From NCBI RefSeq assembly GCF_030013595.1, contig NZ_CP122768.1: 64,000 nucleotides of DNA. One strand, 5' to 3'. The translations under genes were made by a program, and so were the position numbers. The DNA comes from Escherichia coli. Its GTDB lineage: Bacteria > Pseudomonadota > Gammaproteobacteria > Enterobacterales > Enterobacteriaceae. Positions 34,253-35,305 of this stretch are shown here, piece by piece (the first letter of the stretch is position 1; every line of letters begins with the position of its first letter). The notes beneath the pieces are model-generated. The model searched no databases, was not told where the DNA came from, and saw nothing but the letters and a program-made list of their open reading frames with translations.

Positions 34253-34290
34253 GCACGTTCTTGCATATGACGTGGCTACGGGTTTCGAGA
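34253..34290. repeat. Direct repeat R1: diverged copy of the pinE 3' end plus terminator hairpin
   Basis: gtAGCACGtTCTTGCATAtGACGTGgCTACGGgTTTC aligns with 35270-35305 (gcAGCACGaTCTTGCATAcGACGTGCTACGGTTTC). Confidence 0.7.
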
Positions 34291-34472
34291 CCGACCCGAT
34301 CATCAAACGAAACATAAAATTAGCTCACATTATGAGGAAAGGTATCTTTTTGCGCTATGTAAATTCAAAGGGTTAGCCTCATTTTCCCGATGGCTTTCTC
34401 AACACTACTAGTTGTGAGCCCTTGCAATGTTCATTAATATACGTCTCACAAATAATTCACAGATATTGCAAA

Positions 34473-35246
34473 ATGGATATTACTGAGTTTCCTTCTGGAG
34501 TAATTGAACACCTTGGCTGGTATGTATACCGATTGATTGATCCTAGGGACGGAAGCACCTTCTATGTAGGGAAAGGCAAAGGTAACCGCGTATTTGCCCA
34601 TATGCGCGGTGAAGTGGCAGCGGCTGATGATGACGAGTTACTGAGCAACAAGCTAAAGCAAATCAGAGAAATAAGATTAGCGGGACTTGAAGTTATCCAC
34701 GTCATCCATCGACACGGAATGACTGATGAAAAGACGGCGTACGAAGTTGAAGCAGCACTTATTGATGCCTACCCTGGGTTAACGAATATCATGAATGGTG
34801 CTGGCAGCAATGAATTCGGCGCCGCGCATGTCAAAGAGTTGATAGCAACATATCAACCCGAAACCATAACATTTCATCATAAAGCATTAATGATTTCCGT
34901 TAACAGAAGTGCAAAGGATTCAGAGCTTTATGATGCGGTTCGATTTAGCTGGCGCATTAATGTCTCTCGCGCCAGCCAAGCAGAAGTCATTCTTGCTACT
35001 GTAAGGGGGATCGTTCGAGGGGTTTTCATTGCTGATAAATGGCTCAAATCAACACGTGAAAATTTCCCTACGATGAAATACTGGGACGAAGATCCTGACT
35101 TTGAGGCAACACAAAGTTCTCGCTATGGTTTTGAAGGTCGAGAAGCCCCACCTGAAATAGCAAATCTTTATCTTGGAAAAAAAATACCAGATGAATTAAG
35201 AAAAAAAGGAGCTATGTCCCCGGTCCGTTACTCACCTAATTTTTGA
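34473..35246 (+). CDS. GIY-YIG nuclease domain protein (257 aa) with C-terminal extension of unknown function
   Basis: ATG 34473; [47 protein letters not shown]... carries the GIY-(10-11 aa)-YVG motif and conserved Arg of GIY-YIG nucleases. Confidence 0.65.
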
Positions 35247-35269
35247 GTCTTTAAGTGATAAGCATAAAC

Positions 35270-35305
35270 CGCAGCACGATCTTGCATACGACGTGCTACG
35301 GTTTC
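35270..35305. repeat. Direct repeat R2: pinE 3' end/terminator hairpin
   Basis: Hairpin GCAGCACG-13nt-CGTGCTAC immediately after pinE stop codon; partner of R1. Confidence 0.7.

Follow-up and report, generated by a model that had tools for sequence, protein, structure and literature searches.

PD-T4-3 reportedly comes from the screen of Vassallo et al. in 2022. The protein has since been renamed CMoRE and described as a type IV restriction endonuclease for DNA containing 5-hydroxymethylcytosine (5hmC) or glucosyl-5hmC, in which an N-terminal GIYxY-YIG nuclease cuts such DNA around two modified sites (CN11/N9G), a C-terminal domain binds 5hmC with a contact at the main chain of Y127, and an acidic lid loop autoinhibits the cutting of ordinary DNA (PMC12923530). 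The biochemistry, the structures and the defence against T-even phages are all reported in that paper (Nat Commun 2026); defence against Tevenvirinae has been described both in a native clinical host and with the gene cloned in K-12 (bioRxiv 10.1101/2024.12.20.629700), and a homologue shows modification-dependent cleavage in vitro (PMC12366544). The published constructs are 'native promoter' fragments of unstated length, and the genomic context of the gene is left undiscussed, the word 'prophage' being absent from that work (PMC12923530). Here we describe the surroundings of a CMoRE allele in a 64-kb stretch of Escherichia coli chromosome at the icd/e14 site (from contig NZ_CP122768.1; hereafter the window), where it lies within a 4-kb stretch bounded by icd', a C-terminal fragment of icd, and by pin, the serine DNA invertase gene of an e14-like prophage. 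Very probably, the allele occupies the cargo slot of that prophage and the locus consists of two prophage right ends in tandem. Because the CMoRE paper does not discuss context, this anatomy of hairpins, a fossil of the tRNA gene serU (serU') and a non-coding E-element adds detail to a known system and does not define a new one.

In position, the closest described system is McrA of the K-12 prophage e14, which fills the same slot, from the pinE stop codon to icd'. McrA is an HNH enzyme, unrelated to CMoRE as a protein, and its gene lies on the same strand as pinE, whereas CMoRE and pin are convergent. In organization, the closest systems are prophage morons and defence hotspots, which are said to include the morons of the lambda b region and the P2 and P4 hotspots of Rousset et al. 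in 2022. Like these, the CMoRE unit is a self-contained gene with its own leader and a putative terminator, placed between a structural module and the attachment site, and the content of this position varies between similar prophages and is enriched for defence genes. It differs from known morons in that its boundaries can be read at the nucleotide level, as a tail-module terminator hairpin and a fossil tRNA core, which suggests the accretion of whole prophage ends; such boundaries, one a shared and presumably bidirectional terminator and the other the tRNA fossil, give a concrete and testable picture of how prophages accrete cargo. The features on which the argument depends are as follows.

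31043-31260, minus strand: icd', C-terminal duplicate of icd (ORF 31094-31246), matching the icdC region of K-12 at 92% identity; the point where homology with K-12 e14 is regained
34178-34286, plus strand: E-element, conserved and non-coding, with a core of ~70 nt (GTAAAATCGGTAACGGCTGGAAATCATTCAATACTCGCACTATCGAAAGTTCACCAGCC) followed by the terminator hairpin R1
34276-34302, minus strand: serU', fossil of the attachment core of the tRNA-Ser(CGA) gene serU (CTACGGGTTTCGAGACCGACCCGATCA), comprising the anticodon loop and the 5' side of its stem, from alignment with native serU and with comparison loci L003 and L004
34303-34472, plus strand: leader, or former attP arm, conserved at 96-99% identity across all CMoRE contexts
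34473-35246, plus strand: CMoRE gene, 257 amino acids (aa), from the PADLOC PD-T4-3 profile and 254/257 identity to PDB 9U75
35270-35305, both strands: hairpin R2 between the convergent CMoRE and pin genes, from its fold; read as a bidirectional terminator
35304-35858, minus strand: pin, serine DNA invertase, inner edge of the variable slot, from its ORF and serine recombinase family matches

The CMoRE allele

The ORF at 34473-35246 had been predicted to encode a GIY-YIG nuclease, and both the reading frame and its length of 257 aa are confirmed. The PADLOC profile for PD-T4-3 (PDLC04031) matches the product with an E value of 2.2e-140, residues 1-256 of 257 lying on profile positions 1-255 of 256, and the product is 254/257 identical to the crystallized CMoRE of E. 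coli O157:H7 (PDB 9U75 and 9U8D) and close to the protein of avian pathogenic E. coli (APEC) O1 (9U7U). The three substitutions relative to 9U75 (E55D-type, Q168K and N196H) are conservative or at the surface. The window protein and that of O157:H7 have the same length, GIYxY-YIG motif, acidic lid loop, C-terminal sensor and single-gene organization; in the window the motif reads GWYVYRL...TFYVGKG with Y17, Y19 and Y31 present, the acidic loop is D52-D53-D54-E55 (DDDD in the O157 protein), and R80, V92, L96 and Y127 are also kept, such that all residues named in PMC12923530 are present. Profile searches bear out the predicted GIY-YIG motif as a LEM-3-like domain (Pfam PF22945, residues 28-110, E 4e-14) and not through the classical GIY-YIG model (PF01541, E 0.73, not significant). 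The region following this domain had been left unassigned; residues 100-257 align to 9U75 without gaps and with two substitutions, and because of this gapless match, with every named residue present, the C-terminal ~165 aa can be recognized as the modification-sensing domain of CMoRE.

Judged by its sequence, then, the window carries an allele of an already known type IV restriction system that consists of one gene, CMoRE (PD-T4-3), and the product is predicted to cleave modified T-even DNA as shown for the 99%-identical O157:H7 protein. The one-gene unit of ~1.0 kb is all that is common to contexts with differing neighbours, which indicates that CMoRE has no obligatory partner gene. While the gene itself adds little that is new, its annotation can be changed from "LEM-3-like GIY-YIG domain protein" to CMoRE/PD-T4-3.

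A 26-nt inverted repeat (34987-35012 and 35863-35888, 22/26 complementary) connects CMoRE coding sequence (VILATVRGI) with the 5' leader and ribosome-binding region of pin. Since the two genes are convergent, their mRNAs share this sequence rather than being complementary, and the repeat is probably due to chance.

Boundaries of the CMoRE unit

Two copies of one hairpin flank the CMoRE gene, as originally predicted. In a gapped local alignment R1 (34249-34286) and R2 (35270-35305) are identical in 33/38 columns with a score of 47, against a mean of 15.3 and a maximum of 24 in 500 shuffled controls; a repeat scan pairs 34249-34274 with 35270-35295 at 88%, and nothing else in the window matches R2 as well as R1 does. 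A second match to R2 (score 30, at ~39.4-39.8 kb) falls inside the coding region of a baseplate gene and was judged to be chance. The likeness of R1 and R2 themselves could in principle be a coincidence, or a convergence of unrelated GC-rich terminators, given that short hairpins are common at gene ends and that a simple scan calls neither of them a terminator. However, loop and stem agree well beyond the shuffled controls, the hairpin family recurs in hundreds of loci, and the single copy in empty-site alleles continues the R1 flank to its left and the R2 flank to its right, an arrangement that effectively refutes coincidence; we accordingly give this explanation practically no credence.

R2 shares nucleotides with the pin stop codon (35304-35306), and both of its strands fold into a 13-bp hairpin (-17.4 kcal/mol for the plus strand and -23.9 for the minus strand, with z scores of -2.8 and -3.5). 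Hairpins of its family follow pin or the tail-fibre assembly gene tfa in many phages, and the 3' half of the hairpin co-varies with the right-hand gene, occurring in pin-type and tfa-type variants, with the cassette side keeping ...GATAAGCATAAACCGCAGCACG. Its position and its fold on both strands agree with the prediction that R2 is a terminator at the pin stop; because the simple consensus terminator scan calls neither hairpin, we infer terminator function for R1 and R2 from fold, position and covariation. The end of pin together with R2 (35270-35326, minus strand) also resembles the two ends of the Rfam family CssrB (RF02799, a Shigella small RNA), namely its first 6 positions and its last 45, with R2 on the 3' terminal hairpin of the family; the score of 32 bits is short of the threshold of 76. 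CssrB may be a pin- or tfa-type 3'-end fragment that ends at an R2-type hairpin.

The left-hand hairpin had been viewed as a diverged copy of the pin 3' end, with a flank still resembling the last pin codons. The repeat is real, and the remainder of this view does not survive. The likeness between R1 and R2 stops at GGTTTC (34286/35305), and what adjoins it (34276-34302) is not pin-like and aligns with serU at 22/27 identities, such that the supposed codons are a fossil of the serU attachment core. R1 itself is the presumptive terminator of a separate and widespread element, the E-element, and not a private copy made from pin; R1 and R2 are copies of a phage module-boundary terminator and not relics of pin coding sequence.

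The nature of the fossil is clearest at other loci. In O157:H7 EDL933 (L003) and strain 120899 (L004) the cassette is 96-99% identical to the window from 34276 rightwards, and leftwards it continues into TGGCGGAGAGAGGGGGATTTGAACCCCCGGTAGAGTTGCCCCTACTCCGGTTTTCGAGACCG, which reproduces exactly the native tRNA-Ser gene in its 3' part and ~40 nt of its downstream flank; native serU lies beside yodB/mtfA and is called as tRNA-Ser(CGA) by ARAGORN. Among 5,426 complete E. coli genomes, the set used for all counts of E. coli genomes below, 431 have this full serU'-cassette junction, without R1. This recurrence identifies the left end of the CMoRE unit as the attachment core of a serU-integrating prophage, and the window retains only the anticodon-arm portion of that core, fused to R1. 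Since these same genomes carry the cassette without R1, R1 and R2 are not obligatory cassette ends.

Between the fossil and the CMoRE gene lies the conserved leader of ~170 nt, as would be expected of either a former attP arm or a leader. In APEC O78 (L006) and at locus L105 a version of it with ~75% identity precedes another gene: there the same succession of hairpin, serU' and leader is followed by a gene for an SDH-family serine protease of the Clp fold (L006 4304-5308, L105 519-1523). The protease gene has no PADLOC match, and it is an alternative cargo of a CMoRE-type unit. A candidate promoter in the leader (TTGTGA-17-TAATAT, 34411-34439) was seen by eye only, and a promoter scan found none above threshold; of the unit's own signals, it is R2 that folds well. 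In strain p11B (L005) the 3' half of R1 precedes serU' in a further context, and the R1-serU' junction therefore predates some of the later moves of the unit.

A variable slot between pin and icd'

Scored as carriers if they contained at least 80% of window positions 34100-35400, 704 of the 5,426 genomes (13%) have CMoRE, which is also present in IMG/VR prophage contigs. The junction found in the window, R1-serU'-cassette, occurs in 165 genomes, and 282 have the empty arrangement in which the E-element and a single hairpin lead directly to the pin stop codon; in strain MEI3A-1023 (L002), for example, the sequence left of R1 runs into one hairpin and then into the pin stop. What is shared by different contexts is a unit of ~1.0 kb extending from 34276 to ~35282-35304. 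In EDL933 it adjoins pin and has another left flank, in 120899 and p11B it adjoins the tfa gene of a lambdoid prophage with no pin present, and its left neighbour can be serU' or a restriction-modification system. The empty sites and the changing neighbours together substantiate the proposal that the gene forms a discrete cassette at the 3' end of pin.

Comparison with K-12 places this cassette in a slot of variable content. The pin gene is 96% identical to K-12 pinE, and homology to e14 stops exactly at its stop codon (35303) and resumes at icd' (31043-31260), with mcrA lying between these points in K-12; the K-12 interval contains no relic of the hairpin, the E-element, the leader or arm, or the serU' fossil. 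The icd' duplicate is the e14-type attachment boundary and thus the outer edge of the slot. Next to the same pin and tail module, MEI3A-1023 carries a PDC-S15 candidate and the Septu genes PtuA/PtuB; the cargo is a PD-T4-6-like kinase at locus L010 and a PDC-S33-like GTP pyrophosphokinase at L001, and in at least one genome (H115) pin lies directly against icd. Content therefore varies at a fixed position between conserved modules (the pin stop and icd'), as in a moron or defence slot, and the sequence comparisons indicate that the pin-to-icd' interval is a hotspot for defence cargo in which McrA and CMoRE, two type IV enzymes that are not related, substitute for one another, occupying the same place in different strains. 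The suggestion of an exchangeable slot for defence cargo is thereby borne out by McrA in K-12 and by Septu with PDC-S15 and the PD-T4-6-like kinase in relatives. Insertion of a transposon with target-site duplication does not fit, as the repeats are 38 nt long with five differences, the unit contains no transposase, and it also occurs without R1.

The same comparisons bear on the other possibility raised by the original prediction, a free-standing GIY-YIG homing endonuclease that cuts cassette-free pin-terminator sites of related phages and is copied in at repair, with R1 and R2 as its target, duplicated or repaired. In favour are the GIY-YIG domain, the existence of both occupied and empty alleles of the pin terminator, and the variety of neighbours beside which the gene is found; with I-TevI and the Seg proteins of phage T4 CMoRE shares both the fold and the presence or absence of a ~1-kb one-gene insert. 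However, the protein shares 99% of its residues with a restriction endonuclease that depends on modification and lacks a sequence-specific homing site (CN11/N9G around two 5hmC), and Pfam finds only LEM-3_GIY-YIG, with no NUMOD, IENR1 or helix-turn-helix (HTH) DNA-binding module. Unlike I-TevI and the Seg proteins, CMoRE has no module for sequence-specific DNA binding, its substrate is set by base modification, and its unit is bounded by an attachment-core fossil and a terminator instead of a homing site. Moreover, R1 and R2 differ at 5/38 positions, the unit is bounded on its left by a tRNA attachment core in 431 genomes and by R1 in 165, and the right neighbour may be pin or tfa. Because the serU' boundary recurs in those 431 genomes, the left end of the unit is better read as an attachment-site junction of a prophage than as a homing target that was cut and repaired, and, with the protein identified as the characterized CMoRE/PD-T4-3, homing is very improbable.

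We now return to two prophage right ends in tandem. A right end of this kind, from the outside inwards, would consist of an attachment core, in some cases an arm, cargo, the E-element with its hairpin, and a tail gene. One such unit in the window would be icd', the cargo at 31.7-34.07 kb, the E-element and R1, and units of this form abut pin directly in the 282 genomes with the empty arrangement. The second would be the serU' core, the arm or leader, CMoRE, R2 and pin, which is to say the right end of a serU-integrating prophage. R2 would terminate the convergent CMoRE and pin transcripts, and R1, formerly the pin-proximal terminator, would now end the E-element transcript upstream of CMoRE. 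With lower confidence, we propose that the 3' edge of the first hairpin (..CGGTTTC) recombined with the anticodon loop of the serU core (..CCGGTTTTCGAGACCGG), either through microhomology or by a tRNA-targeting integrase that used the terminator as a secondary site, and that homologous recombination in the shared pin and tail genes may have followed.

Some evidence on the join comes from junctions elsewhere. The 3' edge of the hairpin (..GCGGTTTC) is the break point at both serU' and ssrA' junctions, and the breaks fall inside the tRNA or tmRNA loop (with slashes at the breaks, CCGG/TTTTCGAGA/CCGG in serU and GCGG/GTTCAACTCC in ssrA). Integrases that target tRNA and tmRNA genes cross over inside that loop. 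The coincidence of breaks at the hairpin edge and in the loop is what suggests either a join through microhomology or recombination by an integrase at a terminator resembling the stem-loop of a tRNA. Stacking is also found at other loci: at L048 and L075 an E-element hairpin with an ssrA' 3' end is followed by 2.7 kb of cargo and then by E-element hairpin, serU', CMoRE, hairpin and pin.

Such arrays raise the question of whether R1 and R2 are sites of a dedicated cassette exchange, whether integron attC-like or mediated by Pin or a phage integrase. Several loci have two or three direct hairpin copies around different cargo genes, one and the same 3' edge of the hairpin is joined to two different attachment cores, serU' and ssrA', and a serine recombinase gene adjoins; the arrays are like integron attC cassettes in being direct arrays of cargo, each gene followed by an imperfect hairpin. 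They differ from integrons in having no IntI-type integrase, no attI and imprecise junctions, and in that the hairpins are presumptive terminators shared with neighbouring genes. No tyrosine integrase lies beside the array either, the 20-nt inverted repeats at which Pin crosses over (35920-35939 and 37773-37792) are unrelated to R1 and R2, and the hairpin copies are diverged. The hairpin moreover co-varies with its right neighbour, as homologous exchange between phages would give, and the CMoRE cassette lacks R1 in 431 genomes. Dedicated exchange is thus unlikely.

Several observations weigh against our account of the gene and its locus or limit how far it can be taken. The simple terminator scan flags neither hairpin, and R1 is degenerate and re-registered. 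The genome counts are inflated by clonal lineages such as O157. The R1-serU' junction is either old or recurrent, since it also precedes a different gene, with an arm diverged by 25%, in APEC O78 and at L105. The function attributed to the window allele, with its three substitutions relative to 9U75, is read from the sequence. Finally, CMoRE occurs in none of 50,697 deposited phage genomes, 118 of which carry the E-element; CMoRE may reside mostly in defective or rarely induced prophages.

The E-element and other features of the interval

Beyond the gene itself, the most novel remainder is the uncharacterized E-element and its apparent role as a junction point for stacked prophage ends. It is present in ~3,100 of the E. 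coli genomes (~57%), with up to 7 copies in each, in more than 120 IMG/VR contigs, and in the 118 deposited phage genomes, which are of lambdoid and Shiga toxin (Stx) phages and include HK106, HK75, mEpX2 and many Stx phages; among species-representative genomes the exact core is essentially confined to Escherichia. Of the loci compared, it is found in the window, L002, L006-L008, L011-L130, L132 and L133. What precedes the element varies, a frequent left neighbour being the stop codon of a DinI-like gene, and to the right of the hairpin it may be followed by tfa ends, pin ends, serU', ssrA' or other sequences. Compensatory changes support the hairpin (CG 54, UA 12 and UG 4 at one pair; AU 48, GC 9 and GU 8 at the next), and around the core there is a GGCUG/CAGCC stem. 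Phage HK106 reads xis-int-attP-(lambda-type sib/tI)-E-element-hairpin-tfa, which places the element in the small non-coding gap, ~0.5 kb in this phage, that separates the attachment site from tfa.

Two other identities for this sequence were considered and rejected. It is not lambda sib/tI, since HK106 has a lambda-type block of attP and sib/tI (342 nt, 90% identical), and the E-element begins ~30 nt beyond it and has no similarity to lambda; nor does what lies left of R1 appear to be the remains of a DinI-like gene, for which a tblastn search found nothing. The element has no match in Rfam, where the sub-threshold likeness of R2 to CssrB is the only related hit; a full-text search turned up the core sequence in no paper of the library covered, and keyword searches returned nothing relevant.

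A tentative and rather doubtful extension of these data is that the E-element is an unrecognized RNA element of Escherichia phages, either a small RNA or a module of a 3' untranslated region, whose tRNA-stem-like terminator would be a preferred secondary attachment site for tRNA- and tmRNA-targeting integrases, with defence-carrying right ends being stacked at the tail-module boundary. If this were true, lambdoid and e14-like prophages would have, in stacking at the E-element hairpin, a specific way of assembling their defence arrays.

Two further observations concern the E-element. PGAP wrongly annotates its opposite strand as a 'capsid protein' pseudogene. At L048 (1414-5200), L075 (2600-6400) and L064 (1700-4650), two E-elements and a terminal hairpin form tandem arrays, with fossil ssrA (tmRNA 3' end) and serU cores directly after the hairpins, and enclosed by these arrays, upstream of CMoRE and pin, are small cargo genes, HTH/ImmA-like ones among them.

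The locus is preceded on its left by bluR-ycgX-iraM-like ORFs, which are followed by icd', and on its right pin is followed by an invertible tail-fibre segment and baseplate genes. The remaining features are listed here.

31768-33233, minus strand: distal cargo, gene of 488 aa, frameshifted in the window into ORFs of 141 and 371 aa
33549-33968, minus strand: distal cargo, ORF of 139 aa, from the ORF list, with a signal-peptide-like N-terminus (MKYCYLIILSLTISSAQA)
35920-35939 and 37773-37792, inverted: Pin crossover sites, 20-nt repeats, 95% complementary

The 488-aa gene is rare and was counted in 28 genomes. Strain D2 has an unbroken copy (WP_000723924.1); the one in the window has lost 1 nt at gene position 351. 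Searches of Pfam, NCBIfam and PADLOC gave no significant match (Mrr_cat reached only E 0.35), and a weak, non-significant Mrr_cat-like D...QxK pattern can be seen near the N-terminus. We regard the gene as a candidate for a role in defence; barring a sequencing error at the deletion, the copy in this strain is disabled. The 139-aa ORF, which travels together with this gene, has no family match in PADLOC or NCBIfam. Just outside icd', at 31000-31068, is a palindromic hairpin resembling repetitive extragenic palindromic (REP) sequences, which gives a sub-threshold match to the 5' stem of Rfam STnc490 on both strands. On the other side of the slot, the Pin crossover sites bracket the invertible segment, which is 1.83 kb long and carries alternative tail-fibre and tfa ORFs on both strands.

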